A stretch of 64,000 bases of DNA from an uncultured Deinococcales bacterium (GTDB lineage Bacteria; Deinococcota; Deinococci; Deinococcales; JAAFIG01), in the NCBI GenBank assembly GCA_964244895.1, contig CAXTKV010000001.1, positions 810 to 64,809 on the forward strand, given 5' to 3'. Both the position numbers and the translations under genes were made by a program. Of the stretch, positions 1,650 to 64,000 are shown in pieces. The notes below the pieces were generated by a model. It was not told where the DNA came from. It saw only the letters and a list, made by a program, of their open reading frames with translations, and searched no databases. Positions within the stretch are counted from its first letter, which is position 1. Each line of letters starts with the position of its first letter.

Positions 1650-3260
<1,611 letters not shown>

Positions 3261-3302
3261 TTCATATGCTCAGTACTATTTGCTTTCTTGGAGGTAATCA
3301 CT

Positions 3303-8157: not shown

Positions 8158-8171
8158 TTCAAGGCTCGAAT

Positions 8172-8223
8172 CTCGAGTACACCGTCCTGAACGCGTTTCC
8201 AAATACGTGTACCAGACGGTGTT
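8172..8223. repeat. IR family copy (between helicase and nuclease genes)
   Basis: ctcgagTACACCGTCCTGAACGCgtttccaaataCGTGTACCAGACGGTGTT. Confidence 0.75.
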
Positions 8224-9790: not shown

Positions 9791-9822
9791 ACCGCGCGAT
9801 CGGTTCAACCCAGAATCCCAGG

Positions 9823-9878
9823 AATACCGTCCCACACGCAAATTTTGAGGCTCGCGTTCTCGCGTGCTGGACGGTGTT
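9823..9878. repeat. IR family copy
   Basis: AATACCGTCCCACACGC-(24 nt)-GCGTGCTGGACGGTGTT. Confidence 0.8.
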
Positions 9879-44356: not shown

Positions 44357-47300
44357 AGAAGAAACCGTCGCCTCCTGCGACTGGGCTGACCGCACGGGGC
44401 GCGGCGGCAGGTAAAACCGATCTGCCAATCAAAGCCCCAAAGAAGCCCACGAGCGGCGCTCGAGCCGGGGCGCGATCGGTCGCGAACGATGCCCTGCCGG
44501 TGGTGGTCGGAATCGGCGCGTCGGCGGGTGGACTCGAGGCGTTTTCCAGGCTGCTGACCGCGTTGCCAGCCGATACGGGCATGGCGTTCGTGCTCGTCCA
44601 GCACCTCGACCCGAACCACGAAAGCGTCCTGAGCGAATTGCTGGCCCGCACCACCAGCCTGCAGGTATCCGAAATAAAGGACAGACAGAACCTCGAGCCC
44701 AACCGCGTCTACGTGATCCCGCCGAACACCAACCTGGCCGTCCAGCGCGGAATTCTACGGCTCTCGCCGCGCACGGCTGGACGCGGCTTCCACCGTCCCA
44801 TCGACGATTTTCTGCGCTCCCTGGCCGAGGATCGGGGCCACCGCGCGATCGGCGTGATCCTCTCCGGCACTGCCTCGGATGGCACGCTTGGGCTCGAGGC
44901 GATCAAGGCCGAAGGAGGCATCACCTTCGCGCAGGACGAAGCCACGGCGCGCTTCGACTCGATGCCGCACAGCGCCGTCGCCGCCGGGGTGGTGGATTTC
45001 GTGCTGCCGCCCGAAGGGATCGCCGCCGAACTCGCGCGCATGGCGAATGAACCCTACCTGACGAACCCGCCCGAGATCGAACGTTCGCAGCTTCCCACCA
45101 CGCGGAACGCATCTGCCAAGCCGATCACCGGTCCGAGCCCCAAAGCGGCGGGCAACACCGACGAGGACGGCTTCAGGCGCATCCTGCAACTGCTGCACGA
45201 TGTCAGGGGCGTGGACTTCTCGCTGTACCGTTCGACCACCATCCGGCGGCGCATCGACCGGCGCATGCTGCTGGACAACGTCCCCTCGCCGTTGCGTTAC
45301 AGCGAACGCTTGCGCGCGCACCCGAAGGAACTCGAGGCGCTCTATCAGGATTTGCTGATCGGCGTGACCAGCTTTTTTCGCGACCCGCAGACCTTCGAGT
45401 TCTTGCAGCGCGAGGTCTTCCCGCAACTCGTCAAGAACCGCACCGCCGACGAGGCCGTGCGCGTCTGGGTGAGCGGCTGCTCGACCGGGCAGGAAGCGTA
45501 TTCGCTGGCGATGGCCTACCTGGAATTTGCGGCGCAGGCGGGGGTCAACGTCCCGCTGCGGGTTTTTGCCACCGACCTGAACGAGGCGATGCTCGAGCGG
45601 GCGCGCGCCGGACTGTACGCGGAAAGTTTGATGCACAACGTCTCGAAGGAGCGCCTGAAGCGTTTTTTCACCGAAGAGTCCGGCAGCTACCGCATCTCCA
45701 AATCGGTGCGCGAACTGGTGGTCTTCGCGCACCACAACGTCTTCGCCGATCCGCCCTTCTCGCACATGGACGTGATCAGTTGCCGCAACCTGCTGATCTA
45801 CCTCGAGCCGACCCTGCAGAGCCGGGTCATCCCGACCTTCCATTACGCCCTCAAACCCGGCGGTGTGCTGGTGCTGGGCGCCTCCGAAACGGTCGGTCGC
45901 CACACGGATTTGTTCGCGACGCTGGACAGCCGTTGCAGGGTTTACACCAAGCTCCGAGTGACGACCAAAATTCCTCGGCCTGCACCTGCGATCCCTTTCG
46001 TGGCTCCTACCGCGGCCAGGTACGGGTATGAGCGAACAGTGTTGACCGCAGATGCCCCCGACGTGGACGCGCTACGCGAGGCTGACCGCGTGGTGCTCGC
46101 GCGGTACGCCCCGGCGGGCGTGGTGGTCGATGCGACCCTCGAGATCGTCCAGTTTCGCGGCATGACGGGTCGGTATCTCGAGCCCCAGAGCGGCAAGGCG
46201 AGCTTCAATCTGCTCAAGATGGCGCGCGAGGGCCTGATGTTGCCCCTGCGCGCGCTGATCGAACGCGCCAGACACGAAAACCGGGCCGTGCGCGAGGAGG
46301 GTGTGCGCTTTCAGCGCGATGGGCACGCAGAGACCGTGAACCTCGAGGTGGTACCGCTCCGAGCGCCACCCAGCCTGCTGGTGCTGTTCGAGGCTCCGGC
46401 GCCGCACGCTGCAAACCCGGCGTTGGAGCCTCCGGAACCCAAGCGCAAATCGAAAAAAACCGCTGATCGAGCGCAGCCTGCGGCTGACAGCGAGGCCGCC
46501 GATGGGGTTCGCCAGGTCGAGGGACTTCAGCGCGAGTTGCTCGAGACCCGCGATTACCTGCGCTTCATTCAAGAACAGGGCGAGGCCGCCAACGAGGAAC
46601 TCCAATCCACCAACGAGGAAGCGCAATCCGCCAACGAGGAAATGCAGAGCCTCAACGAGGAACTCGAGACCGCCAAAGAGGAACTCGAGTCCAGCAACGA
46701 GGAGATGCGCACCATCAACGAGGAACTGAACGAGCGCAACGCTGAACTGCGCCACCTCAACGACGATCACCTGAACTTCCAGGCCAGCAGCGAACTGGCG
46801 ATCGTCGCGATCAGTACCGACCTGAGCGTGCGGCGGTTCACACCGCAGGCGGAACTGGTGCTCGGCCTGCGCGCCGGCGACATCGGGCGACCGATCGGGC
46901 ACGTCCGACACGGGCTCGACTCGCCCGATCTGCCCAGTCTGGAGGCGCTGATCGCGGAAGTGATCCAATCTGAAAGCCCGACAGACCGCGAGGTGCGCGA
47001 CCGCGATGGCCGATGGTTCCTGATGCGGGTTCGCCCGTACCGGACGCTCCAGAACCACATTGACGGCGCGCTGCTCGTGCTCTTCGGTATCGACGCGCTC
47101 AAGCGCGCCGAACTCGAGCGCGAACGCCTGCAGCACGAGACCGAAGTGGCCTTCGAGAGCCTGGGCGACGGCCTGATCGCCCTCAACCGCGACTGGACGG
47201 TGACCTACATCAACACCGCCGGGGCGCGCCTGGCCGGACTGGCGCGCGAGGCGATGCTCGGCGGCAACTTCTGGGCGTTGTTCCCGGAGCTTTCGGAATC

Positions 47301-48216
47301 GATCTTCGGTCCCACCTACCGCAAGGCCATGACCGAGCGGGTGGCCGTCGAGCTCGAGGCGAACTACGCCCCACTCGAGACCCAGTTCGAGATTCGCGCC
47401 GTGCCGGTCGAAGCGGGAATCTTGGTGCTGTTCCGCGACGTGACCGACCGCCGCCGGGCCGAACTGATCGTCGAAGAAACCCAGGTGCAACTTCGCGCCC
47501 TATCCGAGAGCCAACGGCGCTTCCTGGCGGATGCCGCGCACGAACTGCGCGCACCTTTGGCGGTGATCCAGGGCAACCTCGAGGTGATCGAGCGATACCC
47601 GAACATGCTCCCCGATGAGCGCGCCGAAGCCGTGACCGAGAGCGCACGCGCCGCCACCCGCCTCGGGCGGCTGGCGAACGATCTGCTGTCGCTGGCGCGC
47701 GGCGATGCCGGGGACGGGCTGCGGCTCGAAGCCCTCGAACTCGCCCCGATTCTCGAGGAGACGCTGCACGAACTGAGCCGCCTGACCGAGGGCCTGCGCC
47801 TCGAATCCGGTGCGCTCGAGCCGTGCACCGTGCTGGGCGACCGCGATAAACTCAAGCAGCTCGCCCTGATCCTGCTCGACAACGCCATCAAGTACACCCC
47901 GGCGGGTGGGCGCGTCTCGCTCGAGTTGCACCGCCAGGAAACCCAGGCGGAGTTCCGGATATCGAACACCGGCCCCGCCATCAGCCCAGAGGATCTGGAA
48001 CGGGTCTTCGAGCGCTTCTACCGCACCGACGCGTCTCGCTCGCGCCAGACGGGCGGTACGGGGCTCGGCCTGCCGATCGCGCGGTGGATTGCGGGCCAAC
48101 ACGGCGGAACGGTCAAACTCGAGAGCGAACCGGGCGTGGGCACGACCGCCATCGTGCGGCTACCGCTGGTACACGATACCGATGGTGCTGCTTCGATTCA
48201 GCCCGTGCTGAGCTGA
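44353..48216 (+). CDS. CheB-methylesterase / CheR-methyltransferase / PAS / histidine kinase hybrid
   Basis: 1287 aa. The CheB-like region is VVGIGASAGGLEAFSRLL..FVLVQHLDP. The CheR-like region is TSFFRDPQTFEF..RVWVSGCSTGQEAYSLAM. A coiled coil NEELQSTNEEAQSANEEMQSLNEELETAKEELESSNEEM precedes the PAS modules. The H-box is FLADAAHELRAPL and the ATPase region is GGTGLGLPIARWI. Confidence 0.9.
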   Translation: MKKKPSPPATGLTARGAAAGKTDLPIKAPKKPTSGARAGARSVANDALPVVVGIGASAGGLEAFSRLLTALPADTGMAFVLVQHLDPNHESVLSELLARTTSLQVSEIKDRQNLEPNRVYVIPPNTNLAVQRGILRLSPRTAGRGFHRPIDDFLRSLAEDRGHRAIGVILSGTASDGTLGLEAIKAEGGITFAQDEATARFDSMPHSAVAAGVVDFVLPPEGIAAELARMANEPYLTNPPEIERSQLPTTRNASAKPITGPSPKAAGNTDEDGFRRILQLLHDVRGVDFSLYRSTTIRRRIDRRMLLDNVPSPLRYSERLRAHPKELEALYQDLLIGVTSFFRDPQTFEFLQREVFPQLVKNRTADEAVRVWVSGCSTGQEAYSLAMAYLEFAAQAGVNVPLRVFATDLNEAMLERARAGLYAESLMHNVSKERLKRFFTEESGSYRISKSVRELVVFAHHNVFADPPFSHMDVISCRNLLIYLEPTLQSRVIPTFHYALKPGGVLVLGASETVGRHTDLFATLDSRCRVYTKLRVTTKIPRPAPAIPFVAPTAARYGYERTVLTADAPDVDALREADRVVLARYAPAGVVVDATLEIVQFRGMTGRYLEPQSGKASFNLLKMAREGLMLPLRALIERARHENRAVREEGVRFQRDGHAETVNLEVVPLRAPPSLLVLFEAPAPHAANPALEPPEPKRKSKKTADRAQPAADSEAADGVRQVEGLQRELLETRDYLRFIQEQGEAANEELQSTNEEAQSANEEMQSLNEELETAKEELESSNEEMRTINEELNERNAELRHLNDDHLNFQASSELAIVAISTDLSVRRFTPQAELVLGLRAGDIGRPIGHVRHGLDSPDLPSLEALIAEVIQSESPTDREVRDRDGRWFLMRVRPYRTLQNHIDGALLVLFGIDALKRAELERERLQHETEVAFESLGDGLIALNRDWTVTYINTAGARLAGLAREAMLGGNFWALFPELSESIFGPTYRKAMTERVAVELEANYAPLETQFEIRAVPVEAGILVLFRDVTDRRRAELIVEETQVQLRALSESQRRFLADAAHELRAPLAVIQGNLEVIERYPNMLPDERAEAVTESARAATRLGRLANDLLSLARGDAGDGLRLEALELAPILEETLHELSRLTEGLRLESGALEPCTVLGDRDKLKQLALILLDNAIKYTPAGGRVSLELHRQETQAEFRISNTGPAISPEDLERVFERFYRTDASRSRQTGGTGLGLPIARWIAGQHGGTVKLESEPGVGTTAIVRLPLVHDTDGAASIQPVLS

Positions 48217-48247: not shown

Positions 48248-48300
48248 AGCACTGGGTGGATCATCAGCACTGGGTGGATCATCAGCACTGGGTGGGTATC
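48248..48300. repeat. 18-bp tandem repeat, ~3 units, spanning the 3' end of the response-regulator gene
   Basis: agcactgggtggatcatc occurs twice, then agcactgggtgggtatc. The third unit encodes the last residues ..PTQC of CDS 48282..48674 on the minus strand, and the stop codon falls at the end of the second unit. Confidence 0.9.
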
Positions 48301-48674
48301 GCGCCGAGCGATGGAAGGAGCGCGTGCAACCGCGCGACGAGTTGCGCGAACGACACGGGCTTATCGAAGTAATCCTGTGCGCCCAACGCGAGACCCTCCG
48401 CGCGGTCGCCATCTCGGCCCGTCAAAAAGATCACCGGGATGGTCGCACCGGCGGCGCGAATCCGGCGCAGGGCTTCCGGGCCATCCATGCCGGGCATCAT
48501 CCAGTCGAGGATCATCAAGTCGGGTTTGGTGGTGCGGGTCAGTTCGACTGCGGTCTGGCCCGAATCGGCCTCAATTACGCTGTACCCCTCGAGTTTCAGG
48601 CCACGACGCAAGAAGTTGCGGATGCCTGGGTCGTCGTCAGCGACCAGGATGCGAAACTCAGGCAACGGCAACAC
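48282..48674 (-). CDS. Stand-alone response regulator receiver protein
   Basis: Motifs are ILVADDDPGIRNFL.., LMILDWMMPGMDG and YFDKPV. It is convergent with the hybrid kinase. Confidence 0.85.
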   Translation of the reverse strand: MLPLPEFRILVADDDPGIRNFLRRGLKLEGYSVIEADSGQTAVELTRTTKPDLMILDWMMPGMDGPEALRRIRAAGATIPVIFLTGRDGDRAEGLALGAQDYFDKPVSFAQLVARLHALLPSLGAIPTQC

Positions 48675-51432: not shown

Positions 51433-51792
51433 TCAGATGTGACCCGAACGCCCTGTTCGCGAGATTTCTTCCGGTTGCGCACCACAGGGCCGGTTCGGGT
51501 CCTGCTCGCGGATCGCGATCACTTCCGAGCCCTCGAATTCGCACCGGGATGGCTGGACGCACTCAGCCAAGGATTCAGCCAGGTCGGGAGCGCGGGTCGC
51601 GCCGCACACCGCGCGCTGCGGGTCAGGCGATCCACCGGTGATCTCGAGACTTTCGCCGTCCGCGATGAACGAACCGTCGATGCGTCCCGCACGATCCAGC
51701 TGCAACTCGAGCACACAATCGAGATCCCAGAGGCGAGCGAAGAAGCGCCCCGTGATGCTTGCGCTCGAGGTTTCTGGCCAGCGCTGCCGCAA
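51433..51792 (-). CDS. Hypothetical protein (weak call)
   Basis: This is the only ORF here with a protein-like composition. A sampled stretch has GC3 of about 75%. The overlapping ORF 51519..51881 is Arg/Ser-rich noise. No family recognised. Confidence 0.35.
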   Translation of the reverse strand: MRQRWPETSSASITGRFFARLWDLDCVLELQLDRAGRIDGSFIADGESLEITGGSPDPQRAVCGATRAPDLAESLAECVQPSRCEFEGSEVIAIREQDPNRPCGAQPEEISRTGRSGHI

Positions 51793-51938
51793 TGATCTCC
51801 GGGCGCTTTCATGACCCGTCTCCTTTCTGCCGAGTTCAACCGTCCGGCCCGATGCTCGAGCGCGAGGTCATGATGGGGCACGGCTGGTCAGCGCGCGGTT
51901 AGTGATTCGGACTTTTTTGAGCCGATAAACACAGCAAA

Positions 51939-51984
51939 AAGACCGTCTGGGACACGAAATAACGCCCGTGTCCCAGACGGTCTT
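51939..51984 (-). terminator. IR-family-related hairpin acting as terminator of the STAND gene
   Basis: Perfect 18-bp arms AAGACCGTCTGGGACACG / CGTGTCCCAGACGGTCTT with a 10-nt loop. The minus strand continues with TTTTT. It lies 20 nt beyond the stop at 52004. Confidence 0.7.
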
Positions 51985-52003
51985 CTGAAGCCAGGGCTGC
52001 CGC

Positions 52004-55000
52004 TCAGGTGATGGGCTGGTTCACCACGAAACCTTCCATCGTCTGAGGTAAGAACTCACCGATCTGCTCCAACCTCGAGCGTCCATCGCGAAACAATCGG
52101 CGCGCGCTTCGCGCATCGCCCGCAACCTCGAGCGCCTGAACGACCGAGCGCAGCGTATCGAGGTCGTAAGGTTCCATCTCGCACAGGATCGCGCCGATCC
52201 GGGCGATTTCTCGAGGCTCGATTGGGTCGGACTTCTCGATGGCGGAGCGTAAACCGAGCGTCAACGCCTCGCGTACCTCCAGCCGCCAACCCTCGTGAAA
52301 CCCATCCAGGTACGCGCCGCGCCAGAGGCTCGAATCACCCGATTGCAGAACGTCTTCCGCGTCGCTTGAAACAGCCCCGAGTGCGTAACCGTTCGGTGTG
52401 CTGATGATGCTCTCCGCCCCGAGGCTCGATCGGATCATGTAGACCTGCTGTTTGAGGGAGTTTCTGGCCTCCGGTTCGGGCGCGTCCGAACCGAGCGCAT
52501 CGATCATTTCGAGCGCGCTCGCCTCACTCCGACCGGCGATCCGGGTTTCTAAGAGGTACGCCAGGATCTCGAGGCGCTTGCGGGCGCGCGTTGGCACGGG
52601 TTGACCGTCTCGCTCGAGCCTCACGGTGCCGAGAACCTCGAGTCGAACCGAAGGGCGGTCTTCCCGATAAGAATCAGAACCATTCGCGTCAGACGCGAGT
52701 TCGGGCCATTGCCTCTGCGCGGCGATAAGCGTCTCCATCAGCCCGCGCTCGCGGAACCACTCGAGCAGTTCCAGGCCACGCTGGCGATCTCGCACGAGTC
52801 GGGCGCAGGCGAGTTCAGCCTCGCGACGGTACTCGAGTACCTGCGTACTTTGGATCGCGTCCTTCCACCGACTGAGCGCTGCATCAATCTGAGCGTTCGC
52901 CTCGAGCGCCACCGCCAGAGCGACGTTGCAGGCGAAAGCGTCATCCTCAGAATTCAAGCCGAGGCCCCGCGCTTCCTGCGCCAGCGCGAGTGCCCGCGCA
53001 GGATCGCCAGCCCACGCCTCGACCCGTGCGGCGGCGGGGAGCGCCCCGCCGAGGCATCGAGGGTTGGCCAGTTCACGCGCGTGTTTGACGGCATCCCGTG
53101 AGAATTTCAGGGCGAGCGCACCACCGTGCGGTGGACGCCACTGGGCGTAGAGCAATCCAAGGCTCCACTCGGCGTTTGCCAGGGCGTGCGTGACCTCGAG
53201 GCGTGAGAGTGTCTCGTAGCCTTCGAGCATGATGGTTTCGGCCTCGGTGAATCGTCCCAGCCGCGCGAGGATCGACCCGAGGGCCGTCCGGGCGTTCGCC
53301 CCGTACTGATAGTTACCCGCCTGATCCATCAGTTCGATGGCCTCGTTGAGGCTCTTGATTGCGTCCTGGTACCGACCGAGCCGGGTGAGGTTAAACGCGC
53401 GGTTGTAGTGGCTGGAAGCCAGGTTGGCGCTCCGAGAGGCCACTCGAGCCAGGGCCAGACCCGAGTCGTGCAACCGCTGAGCTTCCTCGAGTTGACCCTG
53501 CTCGGATCGGATGAACCCGAGCATCCCCAAACTGATGGCGCGGTGGGTCGCAGAGAGGTCGATCGTCTCGAGGGCCTGAGCAATCAGGATCTCAGCGTTC
53601 TCAAAATCGCCCAGGTTGACGTAGACTTCCGCCGCATAAGAAATGTTTCGGGGGAACTCGACCAGTTCTGGATGGTCACGCCAGGTCTGTGACGCTTCGA
53701 CCGAGCGGTGGCTTCGCGTCTGGGCGCGAAACACGATGTTCACCCAGCGGGCTTCGGTTTGCTCGACCTCAGGCAATCCGGCGATCAGGGTTTTGACCTC
53801 CTCGACCTTGCCCATGATGGCGAACGCCATCGCCAGCCCGTACCGGGCGTCGCGGTTGCACGGTTGCGCCCCGAGCGCCAGTTGCAGGAGGCGCACGCGC
53901 TGGCGGTGCGAGTCACCCGGCTGAAGCCACTGAACAGCCTCGAGCGCCAAGCGCGAGCGTTCTTCGCCCGTCGAGCGCTCAGCGGCCAGGCCCAGCAGGT
54001 GCGCGGCGGCGTTCAGATCGCCCGCCTCGCGCAGTTGGCGTCCGACCCGTTCGAGCCGCATGACCACCTCCGAAGGCTCGAAGCCCGCGTCGTCAACATA
54101 GTCCGCCGCCTTCACCGGGTCAATCACCTCGAGTTCGCTCAGGGCCCGCGCAGCGTAACGAGTGCGTCGAGCCATCGGAATGTCGCGCCTGGTGATCTCG
54201 GCAAACAATGGGTGCGCGAACCGCGAGTTGTTCAGCACGCCGCCCTGCTCGAGCGCAGTCGCCGCGACCAGAAGCGGCTCGCGACCAATCCCTGCGACCT
54301 TCGCCCAGACCGCATGGAGCACCTCAGGTGCGAGTTCGCCCGGCAGAATGGCCCTCGCCTCGAGCGCCGCACGGGTTTCTGGGGTCTCGGTCAGACTCAA
54401 GGTCAATTGCGAGATGATCGCATCGACCGTGATCGGCATGAAGTCTTCGGGCGGTGCGCGCCAGTGCCAACGTTCGCCATCCGACCACATGAACCCTTGT
54501 CGGGTCAGGTACCGCAGGAACTCGAGCGCGAACAACGGGTTGCCGCGCGTGCGCCCGAACACCCACTCGGCTCCATCCTGTGGCGGTGCTGATTTCAGCT
54601 CCTGTTCCAGCACCGCCGACGTTTCCGCCATTGAAAGCGGCTCGAGCCGATGATTGTGGAACGGTTCAGGCAATTCGGCGCGACTCGTGACGAGCAGACC
54701 CACGCCGCGCGTGCGACGCACGGCCCAAGCGAGCGCTTCGATCACCTCGAAGCGCTCAGAATCGGCCTCGTGAACATCCTCGAGGTGCAGCACGAACGGG
54801 GCGAGCGCACCGAATACCGCAGCGAGCGTCGCCGCAAACGTGCCCGTTTCGAGCGGCTCGCCGCGCTCGAGCCGCGTGAGGTGCACCCGCGCCCAGGCGG
54901 GCAGGGCTGGGGCTTGCGGCAAGGCTGCCACGAACTGCGCGCTGCTCAGGGTCGCGTGCAACGCGAGGTGGCGGCACGGCACGCGCTCGAGGATCGCTTG

Positions 55001-55252
55001 GGCGGCGTGCGTCTTGCCGATGCCGGGTTCGCCCCAAATACCCAGGGCCACACCAATGCGCCGGGACACGACCGCGACCAGTTGCCGCGAGATGACCTCC
55101 TCGACTTCTCGCCTCACGCGCCATCCCCTCCGCCACGAACGGTTTGCTCGCAGAAGGCTCGTCCGGTCTTCTCGGACTTCTCCACCTTCAAAGTCGAGGG
55201 CAGCATTGGAGATGGAAAAAGCCCGTACCACACCTTGAACAGAATCTCTCAC
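52004..55252 (-). CDS. Large STAND-type ATPase regulator: AAA_16 ATPase - TPR array - C-terminal winged-helix + BTAD (SARP) module
   Basis: 1082 aa. Walker A is IWGEPGIGKTHAA and Walker B is PFVLHLEDVH. GRTRGNPLFALEFLRYL is a LAL/MalT-like signature. A long TPR region follows. The C-terminal LEVLGTVRLERDGQPVPTRARKRLEILAYLLE.. plus BTAD-like helices resemble the N-terminus of CDS 15454..17628. The exact start is uncertain. Confidence 0.85.
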   Translation of the reverse strand: MRDSVQGVVRAFSISNAALDFEGGEVREDRTSLLRANRSWRRGWRVRREVEEVISRQLVAVVSRRIGVALGIWGEPGIGKTHAAQAILERVPCRHLALHATLSSAQFVAALPQAPALPAWARVHLTRLERGEPLETGTFAATLAAVFGALAPFVLHLEDVHEADSERFEVIEALAWAVRRTRGVGLLVTSRAELPEPFHNHRLEPLSMAETSAVLEQELKSAPPQDGAEWVFGRTRGNPLFALEFLRYLTRQGFMWSDGERWHWRAPPEDFMPITVDAIISQLTLSLTETPETRAALEARAILPGELAPEVLHAVWAKVAGIGREPLLVAATALEQGGVLNNSRFAHPLFAEITRRDIPMARRTRYAARALSELEVIDPVKAADYVDDAGFEPSEVVMRLERVGRQLREAGDLNAAAHLLGLAAERSTGEERSRLALEAVQWLQPGDSHRQRVRLLQLALGAQPCNRDARYGLAMAFAIMGKVEEVKTLIAGLPEVEQTEARWVNIVFRAQTRSHRSVEASQTWRDHPELVEFPRNISYAAEVYVNLGDFENAEILIAQALETIDLSATHRAISLGMLGFIRSEQGQLEEAQRLHDSGLALARVASRSANLASSHYNRAFNLTRLGRYQDAIKSLNEAIELMDQAGNYQYGANARTALGSILARLGRFTEAETIMLEGYETLSRLEVTHALANAEWSLGLLYAQWRPPHGGALALKFSRDAVKHARELANPRCLGGALPAAARVEAWAGDPARALALAQEARGLGLNSEDDAFACNVALAVALEANAQIDAALSRWKDAIQSTQVLEYRREAELACARLVRDRQRGLELLEWFRERGLMETLIAAQRQWPELASDANGSDSYREDRPSVRLEVLGTVRLERDGQPVPTRARKRLEILAYLLETRIAGRSEASALEMIDALGSDAPEPEARNSLKQQVYMIRSSLGAESIISTPNGYALGAVSSDAEDVLQSGDSSLWRGAYLDGFHEGWRLEVREALTLGLRSAIEKSDPIEPREIARIGAILCEMEPYDLDTLRSVVQALEVAGDARSARRLFRDGRSRLEQIGEFLPQTMEGFVVNQPIT

Positions 55253-55952
55253 CCCTTATCAACGACCGGCTAGTAACGCGCCCTGAACCCGACCGGGTTC
55301 ACGATCATGCGCCCATCGTGCGTTTCGTATTGCCGCATTGAGGTCACCATCGGCACAGCGTTCAGGGAGCACGCGTTCAGGTGGCACGCGACCGATACCA
55401 ACCAAAGCACGCGACAAAGCGAGCGGGAAGAGACAAATGCTCTCACGGAGTCCAGAGCCGAAGCCTGAGATGTTAGCCCGAAACCGACGCGCACGATCAG
55501 GAACCCAGGGTTCCAAAACCGCCCTCGATCCGCTCGGCTCAGAGCAAGGCTCGAGTGCGCATTTCTTTGGACTGGCTCCACACCCCACATTGAGGGTTCA
55601 CGCTCACCGCGCAGTACGCATTGATGATTCGACATCGGTCAGCCCCGATTCTCTAAGCAATTCCGACTTTTGCTCGAAACCCATCGAGAACAGATACGGG
55701 CTTTTGATGGACTTTCGCGGCTTCAGCCTGGTGCGTCCGGGCGGTTATAGGTCAGGGCACTTTTAGAGTCAGTGGAAAATGGTTGAGGCGATCCGAAGAT
55801 TGATCGCAGATCCTCGTTTTGCATCGCTTGAGCTACGCTCACGAGAACGCTGTCCGGCACTGAAGTGAATATTGTTTCCTCCACCATCATTTCCCCTAGA
55901 TCCTGATTCGTGACAAAACTCCTGACAGCCGAGACCATCAGGAGCATGTATG

Positions 55953-55997
55953 TGGTCGGGGTGGCCAGATTTGAACTGACGACCACTTGACCCCCAG
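55953..55997 (-). other. tRNA-Pro-like 3' fragment (anticodon loop to CCA), candidate att site
   Basis: The minus strand reads CTGGGGG-TCAAG-TGGTC-GTCAG-TTCAAAT-CTGGC-CACCCCG-A-CCA. This gives a good T-arm, a 3' acceptor strand CACCCCG, discriminator A and CCA, as in bacterial tRNA-Pro. No matching 5' acceptor strand, D-arm or 5' anticodon stem lies upstream. Confidence 0.5.
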
Positions 55998-56115
55998 GCA
56001 GCCCTCGGGTGGTGTTCTATAGTGAGGTGTCGTGACGATTTGCTGTCCCTGACACAACCTACAGGACTCGAGCTGGCTTGGGCGTGACCTCAATTGCGGC
56101 GCCTTTTCCCAGGAT

Positions 56116-56139
56116 CTGCAGTCAAACCTGCGGTCAAAC
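56116..56139. repeat. 12-bp tandem direct repeat x2
   Basis: ctgcAgtcaaac ctgcGgtcaaac. It is flanked by the 13-nt direct repeat cctcaattgc(g/a)gc at 56088-56100 and 56199-56211. Confidence 0.8.
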
Positions 56140-56518
56140 AGAAATCCCATTGGGGCTGCCACGCTCGTAACAGACTTTGCCCCAGTGTTCGGCACACGTC
56201 CTCAATTGCAGCTTTGTTTGAGCTGAGGGCATCAGAGATCGACAGCGTGAACGCTGGACGCTGGCATAACAATCACAGCGTTTACGCGATTTCGCCGATG
56301 ATGTGCGATGTACCGTAGGAGACTCACTATTGTTAGCAGCAAGACGATAGTTTCCCCGTGTCTTGATTTCCTGCAACAAACGCAGGTTCGGTGAAACACC
56401 TGAGACATGGGAATCTTGGGCCGGATATCTCCGGCGCTCGCAGAACCTGATAGGCATGGCGCAAGTCGTCGTTGCACACAATGCGCCGAGTTAGAGCGCT
56501 ATTCTGAAAGCACCCACG

Positions 56519-57997
56519 ATGATGGATTACGACCAATTGCGATTCGATCTGGAAAACGCGCCCAGCATGAAGCTGTTGCGAAGTCAACACGCACCGCTGA
56601 TCATTGCTTTCCTATACGCACAGTTCAAGAGCTCGCAACACTTGAGCGTGCCATTCGATGATCTCGCATTGCAGCTCGAGCGATTCCTTGAGGTGTTGAA
56701 TGAACAACAGCCCACGGCAAGCCGTTCGGCATCGGCTTACCTCAAAGAGTGGGCGGACGAAGCGCACCGCATCGTTCGTATCACGTCACGCGCTCACGGG
56801 GACTTTGTCGAATTGACCGCCGACGCGGAACGTGCCATTGGCTGGGTCGAAGGATTGTACGGACGCGAGTTCGTCGGTACGGAATCGCGGTTTTTAGCAA
56901 TCTTCAACCTGCTTGAGGAAATCATCGCCCGGAGTACGGCGGATGTCCCAACACGCCTCGAGCAGCTCGAACGGCAAAGGGACTCATTGCAACATGAGAT
57001 TGACTCGATCCGCGCGGCTGGAAGGGTTGAGCCGTTTTCAGACACGCAGATCAGAGAACGGTTCTTTCAGGCCGGAGAGGTCGCGCGCGAACTCGTGCGA
57101 GATTTCGCCGCCGTTGAGCAGAACTTCCGGATGATCGTCAAGGCCTTGCAGGAGCGGCAGGTGCAGCCTGGCACGCGAAAAGGGGCACTGGTTGGCTATG
57201 TCTTAGATGCCGATGAAGAATTGCGCGAATCAGATCAGGGGCGCAGTTTTTATGCCTTTTGGGAATTCCTGATGTCGCCCAGCAAGCAAGACGAACTCTC
57301 CGAGCTGCTCGAACGGGTTTACGCGCTGCCTGTTATCCGCGATGTGGCTCGAGACAACACTTTGCTGCGTCATGTCAGCGGAGCGTTGATCGAGGCGGGT
57401 GGCAAGGTTGTGGGTTCCAACCAGCGGCTGGCTGAGCAATTGCGCCGTTTGCTGGACGAGCACATTCAGGCGGAGCGTCGCCGGGTGCGCGAACTGATCG
57501 AGGACATCAAACGTATTGGTCTGCGTCTAGTGGATGAACAGCAGCCCGTGGTTTTTCTGGAATTGGAAGGTTCTCCTGAAGTCAACATGGTGATGGAAAA
57601 AGCCTTGTGGGAGCCTGGCGTTGCGCCCGTCATTGCGACCCGACCCCTCGAGGGTGACCTCGATTTGACCGAAGCCGACTTTGGCGCGTTGTTCGAGCAA
57701 TTCTCGGTAAGCGAAAAGTGTTTACGCGACCGCGTCGCAACGCTGCTCACAACCCAACCGAGCTGCACCCTGCTGGATGTGCTTGAGCATTTTCCGCTCG
57801 AGCAGGGCTTGGCTGAAGTCATCACGTACATGGCGATCGCCAGCCGGGATGGTCAGCACGAGGTTTCGGAAACGCAGCATGAAAAGATCTTCTTGCAATC
57901 TGCACCGTTTGGGGATGATCTTGAACGAAACAGCTCGAGTTCACATCGGCAGGTCAGTGTTCCCAAAATCACCTTTAGGAGTTTAGATGCCCGTTGA
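56519..57997 (+). CDS. jetA: Wadjet JetA (DUF3375, kleisin-like subunit)
   Basis: 492 aa. MMDYDQLRFDLENAPSMKLLRSQHAPLIIAFLYAQFK.. matches the DUF3375 N-terminus as I recall it. It is the first gene of a four-gene overlapping operon. Confidence 0.88.
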   Translation: MMDYDQLRFDLENAPSMKLLRSQHAPLIIAFLYAQFKSSQHLSVPFDDLALQLERFLEVLNEQQPTASRSASAYLKEWADEAHRIVRITSRAHGDFVELTADAERAIGWVEGLYGREFVGTESRFLAIFNLLEEIIARSTADVPTRLEQLERQRDSLQHEIDSIRAAGRVEPFSDTQIRERFFQAGEVARELVRDFAAVEQNFRMIVKALQERQVQPGTRKGALVGYVLDADEELRESDQGRSFYAFWEFLMSPSKQDELSELLERVYALPVIRDVARDNTLLRHVSGALIEAGGKVVGSNQRLAEQLRRLLDEHIQAERRRVRELIEDIKRIGLRLVDEQQPVVFLELEGSPEVNMVMEKALWEPGVAPVIATRPLEGDLDLTEADFGALFEQFSVSEKCLRDRVATLLTTQPSCTLLDVLEHFPLEQGLAEVITYMAIASRDGQHEVSETQHEKIFLQSAPFGDDLERNSSSSHRQVSVPKITFRSLDAR

Positions 57998-58577
57998 CCT
58001 TCCCGTCCCACACGCGAGTGCAATGATTCGCTTACTTCAAGGCGCGATCTTCAGCGACGATGCGAACGCTTGGAATCTTTTACTGGCACACCAGAGGGCG
58101 GTGCAGAATGACTTCGCTCGGATTGGTTTGGAATTGTACCTGAACGAACCCGATGGCTTCGCGTTTGTGCGCCAACCTGAACCCGAGGATGCCGAAAGCA
58201 CCCTGCCGCGTCTGACCCGGCGCGACCGCCTGAGCTATCATGTCACGCTGCTATGCGTGTTGTTGCGAGAACGACTCGAGCAGTTCGAGGCAAGTACACC
58301 AGAATCGGATCGGTTGCTGGTTTCGCAGGACGAGTTGCGCGACCTCTTGCGTTCCTTCTTGCCGGAGCGCAACGATGAGCGTGCACTCAACAAGAAGCTC
58401 GACGAGACCGTCAACCGCGTTTTAGAGTTGGGCTTCCTCAAACGCTCGAGCGGCTCGTCGGGTTTGCTCGAGGTGCGGCGCATCATCAAAGCACGGATTG
58501 ATTCAGAGCGTTTGGCAGAAATCAAAGGCAAGCTCGAGTCGGTGCGCGAAGATGAAGGTTCCCCCGATGCTGTTTGA
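57987..58577 (+). CDS. jetB: Wadjet JetB (DUF4194, KITE-like subunit)
   Basis: 196 aa. It contains ..IRLLQGAIFSDDANAWNLLLAHQRAVQNDFARIGLELYLNEPDGFAFVRQ.. and overlaps jetA by 11 nt. Confidence 0.88.
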   Translation: MPVDLPVPHASAMIRLLQGAIFSDDANAWNLLLAHQRAVQNDFARIGLELYLNEPDGFAFVRQPEPEDAESTLPRLTRRDRLSYHVTLLCVLLRERLEQFEASTPESDRLLVSQDELRDLLRSFLPERNDERALNKKLDETVNRVLELGFLKRSSGSSGLLEVRRIIKARIDSERLAEIKGKLESVREDEGSPDAV

Positions 58578-61500
58578 GTCTGAGAACCGACTCAGGGACG
58601 GCTTTCGCCTCGAGACCCTCGAGGTTTTCAACTGGGGAACTTTCAACCGTCGCGTTTGGACGCTCGAGATGCAGTCAGGGACGGCACTCCTGACTGGAGA
58701 GAACGGTTCGGGGAAATCCACTCTTGTGGACGCGCTCTTGACCCTGCTCGTACCGGGCCGAATCCGGCATTACAACCAAGCGTCCGGCGCGTCTGGCAAA
58801 CGCGAGCGTGACGAGAGAAGCTATGTTCTGGGCGCGTACAAACGCACGACGGACACGGATTCCGCAGGCAGCAGCGTGTGTTACTTGCGCGGCAAGGACA
58901 CGTACAGCGTGCTGCTGGCGCGTTTTACGAACGAGGCTTTAAAACAGACCGTGACCTTGGCGCAGGTCTTCTACTGGAGCAGGGACGACGAATTGGATAA
59001 ATTCCACGTCGTCGCCCCACAAGCCCTCTCGATTCACGAGCATTTCACCGTCCAGACTGGGTTGGACGAACTCAGGAAGCGTTTGCGCGGGCTGGGTTTG
59101 GGTGTTTACGACGAATTCAGCAAATACAGCCGCGACTTTTTGAAGCGCTTCGGTCTGCGTTCGGACAAGGCGCTCGACCTTTTCAACCAGACCGTCTCGA
59201 TCAAGGAGATCGGCGGGCTGAACGATTTCGTGCGCCAACACATGCTCGAGAAAACCAATGCCAGCGAACAGATCGCGGCGCTGCGCGAGAACTACGAAAA
59301 CCTGACCCGAGCGCACGACGCGATCCTCAAAGCTCAGCAGCAAATCACGCGCCTCGAACCGCTGCTTGGGCAAACCGAGCAGCACGATCAACTTCAATAC
59401 CGTATCGCGGAAACCGAGCAGAGCGCCGAAGCCGCACCGTTCTTTTTTGCAGCACGAAAACTCGCGTTGCTCGAGGGGGATTTAAACGCTGCCGCGCTAG
59501 AACTTGCTGTAGTTCAGAGCAACCGCGATGACATCGCCATGCGCCTCAAGCAACTCCGTGCAGACGAGTACATTCTACGTGACGCGCTACGTCAGGACAG
59601 CGCCGGGCAACAGCTCGAGAAGTTACGGATTGAACTCGAGTACGTCAAGAAGGAGTCTGGTCGCAAACGAGGGAATGCACTGCATTACGATCAGACCGCC
59701 CGACGCTTGAACGTGGCTCCGCTCAACAGCGAAACTGAGTTCCACGCCACCGCGCAACAACTCCCGAGCGAACTCGATGCGTGCGCAGTACAGCTCGAGG
59801 CGTTGACCCGTGATCGTGACGCTCTGATTTCGCAGAAGGACCGACTCGAGGTCGAGTTCACCCGCGCCCGCCAGGAACTCGATTCCCTCCAGAGGCGCAC
59901 GAGTCAGGTTCCGCTCGAGGACGTACGGCTCCGCGAGGATATCGCTCGGGCGCTCAATCTGAACGAGGCTGACATGCCGTTCATCGGTGAATTGCTGCGC
60001 GTGCGGTTGGATGCCCGAGATTGGGAGCCTGTCATCGAACGGTTGCTGCGCAGCTACGGTCGGCAGTTGCTCGTACCAGAAGCGCATTACCGCTCCGTCA
60101 GCGCACACGTGAACGACGTAAACTTGCGCGGACGGCTCGTGTACCACCGCGTCCCGGATCGCGCCGACTCTTCGCGGAGAAAGCCAGTGACCCCAGATGC
60201 ACTGGTCGCCAAGCTCGAGGTCAAACCAGATCATCCTTTGCGCGATTGGTTGATCGCCGACCTGGAAGATCGCTGGGACTACGTGTGTTGCGAGTCGTTA
60301 GAACGCTTCGCTCGAGAACCCAGGGCGATCACCCTGAGCGGGCAGGTCAGGCACAACCAGACGCGTCATGAGAAAGACGACCGCAACACGCTCGGGAATC
60401 GCGCACAATACGTTCTCGGTTGGGACAACCGCGACAAGGTTCGCGTGCTTCAGGAGCAACTCGGTGAACTTGGGCAAAGGATCAGCGCGGTACAACAACA
60501 AATTGGTAGCATCGAAACCGAACAGAAAGCCATTCAGAACCGCGACAAGTACCTGCGGGAACTGCTCAAATTCGAGCTGTACACCGACCTCGATTGGCGC
60601 ACCGAGGAGCGCCGAGCCGAGGAACTCGAGGCGCAACGCCAAGCGCTCACCGCAACAGCGGAGAATCTCCAGCGCATAGAGCGGCAACTCGAGCAGTGCC
60701 AAGCGGATATTGAGAGCGCAGCGAACGCGCAAAAGCACTTGGATGGCGAGATTGGCAAGATCCAAGGGCAAAAAGAAAATTTCGAGCGGCAAAAGCAGAT
60801 CAGCCAAGGATTCCTCGAGACGACAGAAGCTGAGGTTTGGCACGCCCACAGCGCCCGCATCGAGTCCGAGGTGGTAGGTCGTGACGTGACGCTCGAGACG
60901 CTCGACTCGCTTCGGACAGAGATTGAAAGGCGGTTGAACAACAGCGCCAACACGCTCAAAGGTCAAGCCAACAAACTTACCGAGAGCATCGTCCTCAGGA
61001 TGAACGATTTTCGCCGCGATTACCCAGCCGACACCGCCGACATGGATGCCAGCGTAGACGCCGCCCCCGAGTACCGACGAATGCTCGAGCGGCTGACGAG
61101 CGATGACCTGCCCACCTACCAAAAGCGCTTCAAAGAATGGATGGAGGGCAAGGCGACCGATTCCATCGTCGGCTTTCAAGGCACGCTCGAAACGCAGGAA
61201 AAAGCGATCCGCACGAGTGTTGACGCACTGGACGAATCATTGCACAGCATTGACTACACGCCCGCCACATACATTCACCTGCGCGCCGAACGAAACCGCG
61301 ACAAGGAAATCACCGAATTCCGGCAACTGCTGCGCGCCTGCATTCCCGACGTGGGACGGCGCACGCCCGAAGCGAACGAGCAGGGGTTTTTGCGGATTCG
61401 CGCTTTGATCGCACGTTTTGAAACCGAGGCGCGCTGGACCGCTAAGGTCACCGATGTCCGCAACTGGCTCGAGTTTGCGGCGGAGGAACGCTACCGCGAG

Positions 61501-61899
61501 GACGATACGCAAAAAGCGTACTACTCGGACTCGAGCGGCAAGTCCGGTGGGCAGAAAGCCAAGCTCGCGTACACGATCCTGGCTTCAGCCATCGCCTACC
61601 AGTACGGTCTGGATCAAGATGAACACCGCGCAAAGGCTTTTCGCTTGGTGATCGTGGATGAGGCGTTCAGCAAGTCCGACGAGCAGAACGCGCGTTACGC
61701 GATGCAGCTGTTTGAGCAATTGCAACTTCAATTGCTGGTGATCACGCCCCTCGACAAAACACACGTGGTCGAGCCGTTCATCTCGTCCTGCCATTTCGTC
61801 AACAACACACCTGAGGAGGACGACTCGAAGGTCTTCAACTTGAGCATCGAAGCGTATCAGCAGCGTAAACAAAGCCTTTACACGGTAAACAAGGCGTGA
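58567..61899 (+). CDS. jetC: Wadjet JetC (SMC-like ABC ATPase)
   Basis: ORF 58498..61899. The start is ATG 58567 (MLFESENRLRDGFRLETLEVFNWGTF) or ATG 58552. Walker A is GENGSGKSTLVDAL. A long coiled-coil middle region is followed by the signature-like SGGQKAKLAY and Walker B FRLVIVDEAFSKSD. Confidence 0.9.
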   Translation: MLFESENRLRDGFRLETLEVFNWGTFNRRVWTLEMQSGTALLTGENGSGKSTLVDALLTLLVPGRIRHYNQASGASGKRERDERSYVLGAYKRTTDTDSAGSSVCYLRGKDTYSVLLARFTNEALKQTVTLAQVFYWSRDDELDKFHVVAPQALSIHEHFTVQTGLDELRKRLRGLGLGVYDEFSKYSRDFLKRFGLRSDKALDLFNQTVSIKEIGGLNDFVRQHMLEKTNASEQIAALRENYENLTRAHDAILKAQQQITRLEPLLGQTEQHDQLQYRIAETEQSAEAAPFFFAARKLALLEGDLNAAALELAVVQSNRDDIAMRLKQLRADEYILRDALRQDSAGQQLEKLRIELEYVKKESGRKRGNALHYDQTARRLNVAPLNSETEFHATAQQLPSELDACAVQLEALTRDRDALISQKDRLEVEFTRARQELDSLQRRTSQVPLEDVRLREDIARALNLNEADMPFIGELLRVRLDARDWEPVIERLLRSYGRQLLVPEAHYRSVSAHVNDVNLRGRLVYHRVPDRADSSRRKPVTPDALVAKLEVKPDHPLRDWLIADLEDRWDYVCCESLERFAREPRAITLSGQVRHNQTRHEKDDRNTLGNRAQYVLGWDNRDKVRVLQEQLGELGQRISAVQQQIGSIETEQKAIQNRDKYLRELLKFELYTDLDWRTEERRAEELEAQRQALTATAENLQRIERQLEQCQADIESAANAQKHLDGEIGKIQGQKENFERQKQISQGFLETTEAEVWHAHSARIESEVVGRDVTLETLDSLRTEIERRLNNSANTLKGQANKLTESIVLRMNDFRRDYPADTADMDASVDAAPEYRRMLERLTSDDLPTYQKRFKEWMEGKATDSIVGFQGTLETQEKAIRTSVDALDESLHSIDYTPATYIHLRAERNRDKEITEFRQLLRACIPDVGRRTPEANEQGFLRIRALIARFETEARWTAKVTDVRNWLEFAAEERYREDDTQKAYYSDSSGKSGGQKAKLAYTILASAIAYQYGLDQDEHRAKAFRLVIVDEAFSKSDEQNARYAMQLFEQLQLQLLVITPLDKTHVVEPFISSCHFVNNTPEEDDSKVFNLSIEAYQQRKQSLYTVNKA

Positions 61900-63046
61900 T
61901 TACACCCTCGGAAATTGAAGCCAAAGCGCGTCGCATGTACCCGGTGTTCCTGCGGGCATGGCTGCGCGACGAGGCATTCACGCCGATCACCCTGCCCGTC
62001 GGAAAGCTGCCCGACGGGTATCTCGAGCTGCACGCGACAGTGAGCCGATTGCTCCAGGGTGAACGGCGCAGGCAAGATGCGGGCTACCGCGTCGAATCCC
62101 AAACCCGTCAAACCCGCGTACACGGATCGCAAACGCTGCCCGCGCGGGTCGTCATCGGCACACCTGAAGACCTGCTCGCCCTTGCTGGGAAGCGCCCGGA
62201 ATTCGAGGCATTCCAGCGCGATATCGCCCTGATCCGGCGTGAGCAACCCGCGCTCGAAGCGTGGCTCGAGGCGAACGTGACGAGCGTGATCGCGCATCAC
62301 GGCGTTTGGCTGGAATTGCTGCGCGTTTGCACGTACTTTCAAACGAACCCGCGCCCAAATCAGTATGCTCGAGCGCTGCCGATTGCAGTCCACACGAAAT
62401 TCATTGAGGGTCACACCGGGATTCTGCGCCGTCTGCTTGACGCGCTCCTGCCACCAGAAGCGATCCGCGCCGAGGAATCCTCCTTTGAGCGGCGTTTCGG
62501 GTTCGCGAGGACGAACCGCTCGTGCGGTCGCGGTTGCTTGATCCTGAGCTTCACCACCGATTCGGTTTGAACCTGCGCGACGTGAGCCTGCCCGTGAGCG
62601 AATTCGTGAATCTCGAGTGGCGCGGCGTGCGCTGCCTCATTGTGGAAAATAAGAAAACCTTCTTGACGTTGCCGTTCCTGCCCGACACAGTGGGCGTCTT
62701 TGGCAGCGGTTTCGGGGTTGAACTGCTCACGTCCGCCACCTGGCTTCAGGACTGCCCGATCCTGTACTGGGGCGACCTAGACGCACACGGTTTCGAGATT
62801 CTCTCGAAACTCCGCTCGAGTTTCCCCCAGACAGTTTCCGTGATGATGGACGCCGCGACTCTCGAGCAATTTAGGATGTTCATCGTGCCAGGAACGCCCT
62901 CCGCAACGCGTTCGCTGCCGCACTTGAAGCCTACTGAACACGAGGTCTTTGCTCGGCTCGCGCAATCCAGCCAGCGGCTCGAGCAGGAGCGCCTCGATCA
63001 CGCTTATGTCGTTGAGCGGCTCGGTTCTTTGATAAACGCGCTTTGA
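61896..63046 (+). pseudogene. jetD: Wadjet JetD (DUF3322 + Toprim/DUF2220 nuclease subunit) interrupted by a frameshift
   Basis: The gene reads as two ORFs in different frames, 61896..62570 (frame 0, starts ITPSEIEAKARRMYPVFLRAWL) and 62522..63046 (frame 2, contains YWGDLDAHGFEIL). Frame 2 is open from 62489. Joining ..SSFERRFGF with (R)EDEPLVRSRLLDPEL.. restores a protein of about 383 aa, the normal JetD length. Confidence 0.85.
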
Positions 63047-63197
63047 GGACTTGAACGGGTTTTTCAAAGTTGCGCCTTTACTCCAGCTCACACGACGGGA
63101 AACAGCGTCCGCTCGAGCAAGCAGACAATCCTCACCGTGTCCAGCGTGAACGAGGTCTGAAAACCCTTGAATTTCTCGATTTGAATGGTTTTGATCT

Positions 63198-64000
63198 TCA
63201 CGCGCCGTTACCCGTTTCACCCTCAGCGCCATCGCCCGAGAGCAGCGCCTCGAGTTGCGCCACGCTCGGCAGCGTCCCCTCGAGTTCTGCAGGCAGTGCC
63301 TGGGACAGATCAAAGCTGGAGATGCCCATTGGTTGCGCTATGCCGCGCAGCGCGTACTCCACATCCGTGCGGTCGCGGTCCTTGCACAACACGATCCCGA
63401 TGCTCGGCGCATCACCGGGTGAGCGCAGCAGATCGTCCACGGCGGACAGGTAGAAGTTCATCTTGCCCGCGTACTCGGGTTTGAACTCCGTCATTTTCAA
63501 GTCAATCACCACGAAGCAGTGCAAGCGGTAATGGTAAAAAAGCAAGTCCAGGAAATCGTCTTTGCCATTGACCTCTATGTGATGCTGGCTACCGATGAAC
63601 GCGAAGCCCGCGCCTAACTCGAGCAGAAAGTTCTTGAGGTGCGCGATCAGCCCGCGCTCGAGGTCGCGCTCATGGGCTTCATCTCCCAGTGACAAAAAGT
63701 CGAAGTTGTACGGGTCTTTGAGGATCTGCGCGGCGAGTTCAGATTGCGGCGCGGGCAGGGCGCGGTCAAAGTTGTGAACCGCTCTGCCTTGACGCTCCAT
63801 CAAGCGCGTGGCGATTTGCGCCTCGAGGATCACCCGCGACCAGCCGTTCTGGATGCACGCTTTGGCGTACCACTCGCGCGACTCGAGGGAATCCAGCTTG
63901 TCCAGCAGGCGCACGTTGTGACCCCACGGCAATTGTCCAACAACCTGTTGGACAATTGCCTCGTCTGGGTACGCCTCGGCAAACGCTCTCATGTACAACA
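63198..64000 (-). CDS. DUF1016 (YhcG-like) PDDEXK-family nuclease, N-terminus outside the window
   Basis: It contains ..YAKACIQNGWSRVILEAQIATRLMERQG..LKDPYNFDFL..ERDLERGLIAHLKNFLLELGAGFAFIGSQHHIEV..DLLFYHYRLHCFVVIDLKMTEFKPEYAGKMNFYL.. The D..(D/E)xK core is visible. The reading frame stays open to base 64000. Confidence 0.85.
   Translation of the reverse strand, partial: LYMRAFAEAYPDEAIVQQVVGQLPWGHNVRLLDKLDSLESREWYAKACIQNGWSRVILEAQIATRLMERQGRAVHNFDRALPAPQSELAAQILKDPYNFDFLSLGDEAHERDLERGLIAHLKNFLLELGAGFAFIGSQHHIEVNGKDDFLDLLFYHYRLHCFVVIDLKMTEFKPEYAGKMNFYLSAVDDLLRSPGDAPSIGIVLCKDRDRTDVEYALRGIAQPMGISSFDLSQALPAELEGTLPSVAQLEALLSGDGAEGETGNGA

Follow-up and report, generated by a model that had tools for sequence, protein, structure and literature searches.

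The 64,000 nucleotides (nt) of contig CAXTKV010000001.1 analyzed in this study, in the following called the window, very probably contain a type I Wadjet system with a frameshifted jetD gene, located at the attR-proximal end of an island which is inserted in a tRNA-Pro(GGG) gene and comprises at least 8 kb, in a bacterium of the Deinococcota. The system is encoded by four genes on the same strand, jetA-jetB-jetC-jetD, which form one operon at positions 56519-63046 (+). By its sequence, this locus represents a canonical Wadjet system of type I (JetABCD, alias MksBEFG or EptABCD). All features which define such a system at the sequence level are present, with the exception of an uninterrupted jetD, and neither the architecture nor the domain content or the motifs depart from what is known for type I Wadjet. 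The window therewith provides a further type I operon of a family whose structure and mechanism are already well characterized.

The jet Operon and Its Assignment to Type I Wadjet

Four co-directional genes with overlapping stop and start codons had already been described for this region in an earlier note on the window, and the listing of open reading frames (ORFs) agrees with the positions and sizes given there. The kleisin subunit is encoded by jetA (56519-57997 (+), 492 amino acids (aa)), the KITE subunit by jetB (57987-58577 (+), 196 aa) and the SMC-family ATPase by jetC (58567-61899 (+), 1110 aa), followed by jetD (61896-63046 (+)), which occupies two frames. The length of about 383 aa that the note had assigned to JetD is exactly that of the repaired protein (383 aa), but it does not correspond to a single ORF in the sequence as given. 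Stop and start codons of adjacent genes overlap by 11, 11 and 4 nt. These overlaps are identical in the three closest relatives, and the architecture of the operon and the gene lengths are the same in the closest relatives as well. The ORF of jetC is open from a TTG at 58498; the ATG at 58567 is preferred as its start codon because the resulting 1110 aa are the exact length of JetC as called in the three closest relatives. All motifs quoted in the note are found at their places on the (+) strand. For JetC, these are the Walker A motif GENGSGKST (58696-58722), the signature SGGQKAKLAY (61543-61572) and the Walker B motif LVIVDEAF (61645-61668). For JetD, it is the acidic stretch YWGDLDAHGFEIL (62765-62803), which contains the DxD motif and includes GDLDAHG, and which is accompanied by the catalytic Glu (IVENK, 62639-62653 (+)) and by RLEQER (62975-62992 (+)).

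For the assignment to a family, Pfam matches were judged against the curated cut-offs and PADLOC models were used for the Wadjet type. JetA matches PF11855 (DUF3375) with an E-value of 5.7e-107 (358.9 bits vs. a cut-off of 28.6; profile positions 4-474 of 474) and the PADLOC model JetA1 with 2.9e-134, and a sequence search of the PDB yielded matches to the solved JetA chains 8dk1_A and 8q72_E. JetB matches PF13835 (DUF4194; 5.7e-38, 130.7 bits), PF21980 (MksE; 2.7e-14, 54.3 bits), JetB1 (3.7e-58) and, weakly, the solved JetB 8dk1_E. The proposal of the earlier note that JetA and JetB read like DUF3375 and DUF4194 proteins is therewith borne out. The match of JetC to JetC1 (E-value of 0, 1245 bits) extends over residues 29-1126, compared to profile positions 11-1119 of 1123. 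Its alignment with solved JetC proteins (8dk2_C, 2.5e-68; 8as8_A, 1.2e-62) covers residues 11-1102. The product of the 5′ frame of jetD matches PF11795 (DUF3322; 4.8e-41) and profile positions 1-205 of 382 of JetD1 (2.7e-61), while the product of the 3′ frame matches PF09983 (JetD_C; 5.6e-43) and positions 211-380 of 382 of the same model (7.5e-61). PDB sequence searches with the four products returned Wadjet subunits exclusively, in the case of JetD MksG from C. glutamicum (8b7f), JetD(E248A) from E. coli (8q72_M) and JetD from P. aeruginosa (7til). When the repaired JetD was modeled with AlphaFold2 (mean predicted local distance difference test score (pLDDT) of 85.9), MksG 8b7f and JetD 7til were the sole significant full-length fold matches of the model, with E-values from 1e-21 to 1e-17. 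Its global template modeling score (TM-score) is low (0.41), which is to be expected because a flexible hinge connects the two domains. Residues E251, D294/D296 and E363/E365 of JetD show no variation in the alignment.

As a literature search on DUF3375, DUF4194 and Wadjet returned nothing, the mapping from Pfam families to a Wadjet type rests on the names of the PADLOC models. With all four products lying far above the cut-offs of the Pfam and PADLOC type I models, and with the type I models ranking first in PADLOC for each product, the Wadjet assignment of the earlier note holds. The Pfam domains found in JetC (AAA_29, SbcC_Walker_B and AAA_23) are generic to the ATPase superfamily and would also fit other SMC-like systems (e.g., Lamassu, RecN/SbcCD or a housekeeping MukBEF). 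However, JetC reaches only 43 bits with the Lamassu model LmuB in PADLOC, compared to 1245 bits with JetC1, and its best matches among solved structures are all JetC chains. The partner genes moreover belong to the specific JetA, JetB and JetD families, and neither LmuA/C nor SbcD is found among the neighbors. With these bit scores and these partners, an identity of the Lamassu or RecN/SbcC type was ruled out, and its probability can be regarded as negligible. JetC is likewise not closer to RecN-, SbcC- or LmuB-type ATPases; a grouping with the RecN/SbcC type had been named in the earlier note as an argument against its own reading.

Among the characterized systems, JetABCD from E. coli GF4-3 (type I; PDB 8as8, 8bfn, 8q72) has the same four subunits with the same domain order, and the alignments cover residues 10-1093 of JetC (E-value of 1e-62), 14-344 of JetA and 2-368 of JetD. 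The E248 of E. coli JetD corresponds to the E of IVENK in the window. Differences to this system are the low identity of JetD (about 21%), the frameshift of jetD in the window and the host of the window, a member of the Deinococcota. The highest-ranking solved structures for JetC (2.5e-68), JetA (1.5e-16) and JetB (4e-4) are those of JetABCD from P. aeruginosa PA14 (8dk1-8dk3, 7til), which also yields a fold match for JetD (7til, 1.8e-19). Unlike in PA14, jetD is broken in the window, and the N-terminal IFDR of P. aeruginosa JetB, which contacts JetD (PMC10586767), is not evident in the N-terminus of JetB from the window (MPVDLPVPHASAMIRLL). MksG from C. glutamicum (8b7f) is the best match for JetD in both sequence (7e-22) and fold (1e-21), and its metal-binding residues E236/D279 as well as its E349/E351 (PMC10123090) are represented by IVENK, GDLD and RLEQER. 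Nomenclature and order differ for MksBEFG, with mksF, mksE, mksB and mksG being the counterparts of jetA, jetB, jetC and jetD. In addition, metagenomic Wadjet loci from ENA (L081, L082) and Logan (L083-L085) share 78-82% nt identity with the window across jetABCD and have identical gene lengths and overlaps. In these loci, jetD is intact, unlike in the window.

Based on studies of characterized homologues (10.1101/2023.11.03.565488; PMC10586767; PMC10123090), JetA, JetB and JetC would assemble into a dimer-of-dimers motor, which would load on DNA and perform ATP-driven loop extrusion. On a small circular DNA, two such motors would converge and hold a tight U-turn of the DNA. A JetD dimer would dock via its N-terminal arm+CAP (aCAP) domains on the JetC heads and would kink the DNA at the active sites of its Toprim domains, which, with their metal site composed of a Glu and the DxD motif, would cut both strands. 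In these homologues, plasmid restriction needs all four subunits, and the rigid aCAP module is flexibly linked to the Toprim domain (10.1101/2023.11.03.565488; PMC10586767; PMC10123090). The activity predicted for an intact version of the system, ATP-dependent cleavage of small circular DNA, is transferred from these homologues.

The Lesion in jetD

The earlier note had also stated that the nuclease subunit is disrupted, which was confirmed for the sequence as given: compared to L081, L082 and L083, one G is gone after position 62503. The nucleotide alignment of jetD with these three loci has one gap column in 1152 nt, a 1-nt deletion at 62503..62504 (+) by which the G of the TTG codon for Leu203 is lost and the frame is shifted. 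The 5′ part of the gene, encoding the aCAP domain (61896-62570 (+), 224 aa), consists of authentic codons up to 62503, followed by an out-of-frame tail of 22 aa and a TGA. The 3′ part, encoding the Toprim nuclease domain with the matches to JetD_C and JetD1 (62504-63046 (+)), lies in the -1 frame. This second frame is open from 62489, has its first start codon, a GTG, at 62522, and the resulting ORF (62522-63046) encodes 174 aa. Instead of an uninterrupted jetD frame, the sequence hence contains two ORFs of 224 and 174 aa. The deletion is located between the two Pfam domains, in a coil of the AlphaFold2 model between the helix 197-200 and the strand 209-214, and the Toprim Glu (E248 in E. coli, E236 in MksG), the DxD and the ExE (RLEQER) are all kept downstream of the break. 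A search with the repaired JetD against 5.8 billion proteins yielded three full-length relatives with 78-80% identity. A further match, P0057 (211 aa), is a 100% identical N-terminal fragment and represents the deposited assembly's own gene call for the 5′ part of jetD.

Comparison of substitution rates did not reveal any sign of a longer decay of the gene. The ratio of non-synonymous to synonymous substitution rates (dN/dS) is 0.21-0.22 for the repaired jetD against its relatives and 0.217 for the pair of intact relatives, and the non-synonymous branch leading to the jetD of the window (0.059) compares with 0.082 and 0.063 for the relatives, with both halves of the gene behaving alike. For jetA, jetB and jetC, dN/dS is 0.07-0.19. 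Between 29 and 55 kb, 24 genes of the window are each full-length in one frame when aligned with proteins from a close relative, and jetD is the sole broken gene detected among the genes checked. As jetD exhibits no other damage, has a dN/dS of about 0.2 and does not show a lengthened window branch, the deletion is either very recent or not real.

Between these two options, a real mutation is somewhat favored over an error of the assembly. If the missing G were an assembly or sequencing error, JetD would be an intact protein of 383 aa and the Wadjet system fully functional. This explanation is possible, although less likely than a real mutation, and it fits several of the observations: the break concerns a single base of an otherwise perfectly collinear jetD, neither half of the gene has accumulated an excess of substitutions on the window branch at a dN/dS of about 0.2, the catalytic residues are all intact and the contig probably originates from a metagenome-assembled genome (MAG). 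On the other hand, the missing G does not lie in a homopolymer (GGGTT[G]CGCG), and the 24 other genes without any frameshift against the close relative let the per-base error rate of the assembly appear low. It also counts against an error that the inactivation of self-endangering defense nucleases is biologically common.

A scan for third-position G + C content (GC3) and frame switches proposed three candidate split genes in the window (19705/19998, 43061/42843 and 50159/49815). Of these, 43061/42843 and 50159/49815, and likewise a pair of ABC-2 permease genes (25854-27419/27056-28297), were recognized as individual, intact genes on the basis of Pfam and the proteins of the relative. In the relative itself (L114, 18023-18686; contig ctg355590_12x_l), the gene call for a PCMT methyltransferase is split in two (40 and 169 aa), whereas its orthologue in the window (32659-33582 (-)) is one ORF. 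Indel errors seem to lie in the assembly of the relative rather than in that of the window.

Predicted Consequences of the Broken jetD

As given, the locus would provide a complete JetABC motor without a full-length nuclease, and plasmid restriction is predicted to be lost, since it is the aCAP domain which supplies the docking to JetC. Native translation would result in an aCAP fragment of 202 authentic residues with the 22-aa tail, and at best also in an untethered Toprim fragment, for which translation would have to restart at GTG 62522. If the deletion is real, a defense nuclease was knocked out by one very recent base loss, and the strain would be more permissive for plasmids than expected from its Wadjet genes. 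This would be of relevance for attempts to predict transformability from inventories of defense systems.

That the break is tolerated by function, either because a naturally split JetD supports or dampens cleavage or because JetABC persists as a DNA-handling motor without a nuclease, is considered very improbable. For a split JetD, in which the aCAP part (residues 1-202 plus the 22-aa tail) and the Toprim part (from GTG 62522) are made separately after a real deletion and still support or attenuate cleavage, it can be argued that the break hits exactly the flexible connector between the domains, as defined by the Pfam boundaries, the coil 201-208 of the AlphaFold2 model and the structural work on homologues (10.1101/2023.11.03.565488). 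Likewise, a GAGGAC is present 10 nt upstream of GTG 62522, the Toprim domain dimerizes alone and MksG by itself has nicking activity on DNA in vitro (PMC10586767; PMC10123090). However, GAGGAC and GTG just encode the conserved residues R-E-D...V and are present in intact relatives too, and a restart at this GTG would delete a part of the first β-strand (209-214). An untethered Toprim domain would moreover lose its targeting, as aCAP is the tether of JetD to the JetC heads (10.1101/2023.11.03.565488), and among the 120 best JetD homologues the only short one is the fragment of the window itself. A split but active JetD is hence highly unlikely. Restoration of the full-length protein by programmed -1 ribosomal frameshifting has in its favor that the two jetD frames overlap at 62489-62570, where a -1 shift would join them. 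As this overlap does not contain any slippery heptamer of the type X_XXY_YYZ and as the three closest relatives have their JetD in a single frame, such frameshifting was ruled out and is next to impossible.

JetABC could finally have been kept after the loss of JetD for a role which does not depend on the nuclease, either as an organizer similar to MukBEF/MksBEF or as a plasmid-binding "silencer". The intact jetA, jetB and jetC genes with their purifying selection and the structural resemblance of JetABC to MukBEF (PMC10586767) would fit this idea. Yet, the signal of selection on jetABC mostly predates the very recent deletion, and an operon on an accessory island that is missing from a close relative does not have a core chromosome function, so that this role appears very unlikely, too. 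The reading preferred here remains a type I Wadjet system whose jetD is frameshifted.

The Island at tRNA-Pro(GGG)

The left boundary of the island is marked by an attR-like 3′ fragment of a tRNA-Pro(GGG) gene, which comprises 45 nt from the anticodon loop to the CCA (55953-55997 (-)). It was noticed by eye in the 1.27-kb gap upstream of jetA and spans the anticodon loop CTGGGGG, the T-arm, the acceptor stem and the CCA; neither ARAGORN nor Rfam called a tRNA for it. The 45-mer has one exact copy in the window, with none expected by chance, and corresponds exactly to the 3′-terminal 45 nt of a tRNA-Pro(GGG) of 77 nt that is present on 20 metagenome contigs. Six other contigs contain it as a fragment without a tRNA, and two additional ones (L107, L112) end within the match.

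The corresponding locus of a close relative (L115) allows an occupied and an empty site to be compared. Its flanks are 90-96% identical to the window at the nt level, positions 51561-56000 of the window are collinear with it at 90% nt identity, and an orthologue (P0241, 92% aa identity) of the AAA_16-TPR regulator of the window is present. The homology stops inside an intact tRNA-Pro(GGG) gene (L115, 9079-9155), and the nine genes which follow in L115 have no counterpart in the window. No jet genes were found in L115 at the tRNA-Pro site. As the tRNA-Pro is intact there, Wadjet is missing and the homology ends inside the tRNA, L115 represents the empty site. The putative insertion starts at about 55998 and runs past 64000, i.e., over at least 8 kb, and judged from the nucleotide comparison the operon is situated at the attR-proximal end of an island integrated into the anticodon loop of the tRNA-Pro(GGG) gene. 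This pair of sites documents that Wadjet in the Deinococcota is part of the cargo of an island integrated at tRNA-Pro(GGG), where it occupies one end.

The low-GC island proposed in the earlier note is in agreement with these boundaries, i.e., with the tRNA-Pro fragment on the left and the empty site in the relative. The G + C content of 55953-63047 is 57.7%, while the remaining window averages 63.8% and does not drop below 59.0% in any 7.1-kb segment. The same island end occurs in a second lineage, as L081 and L082 share the tRNA-Pro fragment and a 520-nt spacer with the window. Homology to both loci starts exactly at the CCA end (55953), with the first 51 nt being identical, and ends at 63047, one base after the jetD stop. 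Because it spans this entire region, tRNA fragment, spacer and jetABCD move jointly, as one end of the island. The DNA of L081 and L082 that adjoins the tRNA fragment on the left and jetD on the right is unrelated to that of the window. The cargo beyond jetD varies accordingly: jetD is followed by a gene for an IS3-type transposase in L081 and by one for a YhcG/DUF1016 nuclease in the window. The latter (63198-63998 (-)), a PD-(D/E)xK nuclease and PDC-S02 candidate defense gene, matches Pfam YhcG_C (3.3e-64) and DUF1016_N as well as PADLOC PDC-S02 (1.3e-115, profile positions 99-351 of 357), with about 98 N-terminal aa located beyond the window. With a displaced 3′ tRNA fragment, an empty site, a deviating G + C content and defense genes (Wadjet and PDC-S02) as cargo, the island resembles known tRNA-integrated (defense) islands.

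Several points weigh against this overall picture of a type I Wadjet with frameshifted jetD at the end of a tRNA-Pro(GGG) island. The island continues past the end of the window at 64000, so that its far end (intact tRNA-Pro, integrase) is located beyond it. The source is a contig of probably metagenomic origin, and no second genome of the same strain was found in the databases searched. JetD is only 21-25% identical to the characterized homologues from which the mechanism is transferred. Consensus scans for promoters and terminators yielded nothing above the shuffled expectation and were not used.

The spacer between the tRNA fragment and jetA (55998-56518 (+)) is non-coding, with about 78% identity to L081 (1556-2064) and L082 and with indels whose lengths are not divisible by three. 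Between the window and these two loci it is as conserved as the genes, while the upstream region of L083 differs from it. Rfam had no match in the region upstream of jetA, neither at the gathering thresholds nor at E-values up to 10. The spacer may hold a recombination arm of the island together with promoter or regulatory sites of the jet operon. In two contigs, the 45-mer was found in two direct copies which are 2680 nt apart (L089, 3551-3595 and 6231-6275; L105, 2876-2920 and 5556-5600), with no intact tRNA on the contig. Those in L105 flank GNAT, AbiEi/AbiEii, heavy-metal P-type ATPase, ArsR, LMW-PTP (arsenate-reductase) and OsmC genes. This suggests tandem accretion of islands at tRNA-Pro in related organisms.

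On its other side, the tRNA site is adjoined by the gene of the AAA_16 and TPR regulator (52004-55252 (-)). Its start is probably at 55117 (1037 aa, as in P0241) and not at the GTG at 55252. The database names of its homologues include "SARP family transcriptional activator".

Host and Distribution

The host of the island was assigned to the Deinococcota because the relatives of its polynucleotide phosphorylase (pnp, 39058-41262) belong to Deinococcus, Deinobacterium and other Deinococcales (68-72% identity). The same gene has a 98% match to a 1.46-Mb contig in ENA. A host from the Chloroflexota, which had first been suspected from the JetD relatives, was dropped after the pnp search. Named JetD relatives with 46-55% identity are indeed mostly from Chloroflexota (Oscillochloris, Chloroploca, Roseiflexaceae, Ktedonobacteria and Anaerolineae), but they also include cyanobacteria and some MAGs of Deinococcota. 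This distribution is compatible with a transfer of the island cargo between phyla, without establishing it. Apart from the window, no JetD with more than 80% identity is present in the protein database. A blastn search with the whole module against 72,556 plasmids yielded just short matches of about 71% to other jetC genes, and there is accordingly no plasmid-borne close relative among them.

Other Features of the Window

Some genes outside of the island deserve a brief mention. A gene for a DUF790 protein (E-value of 2.5e-128) adjoins one for an XPB-type helicase (ResIII, XPB_DRD and ERCC3_RAD25_C domains) at 6913-8202 (-) and 8273-9841 (-), and the two look like a bacterial helicase-nuclease pair of the XPB/Bax1 type. 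Directly after the prolyl-tRNA synthetase gene (1692-3260), the G + C content drops to 45.5% (3001-4000), compared to about 63%, and the ORF of 256 aa located in this trough (3288-4058 (+)) has no match in Pfam. A fusion of CheB, CheR, PAS and histidine kinase domains (1287 aa, 44353-48216 (+)) is flanked by receiver-domain genes on either side (43958-44353 (+) and 48285-48674 (-)). It is 99% identical to the copy of the relative, compared to 84-92% for the neighboring DNA. A protein of 829 aa with TPR and CHAT (caspase-like protease) domains is encoded at 33664-36153 (-); its gene is chromosomal and has a counterpart with 95% aa identity in the relative.

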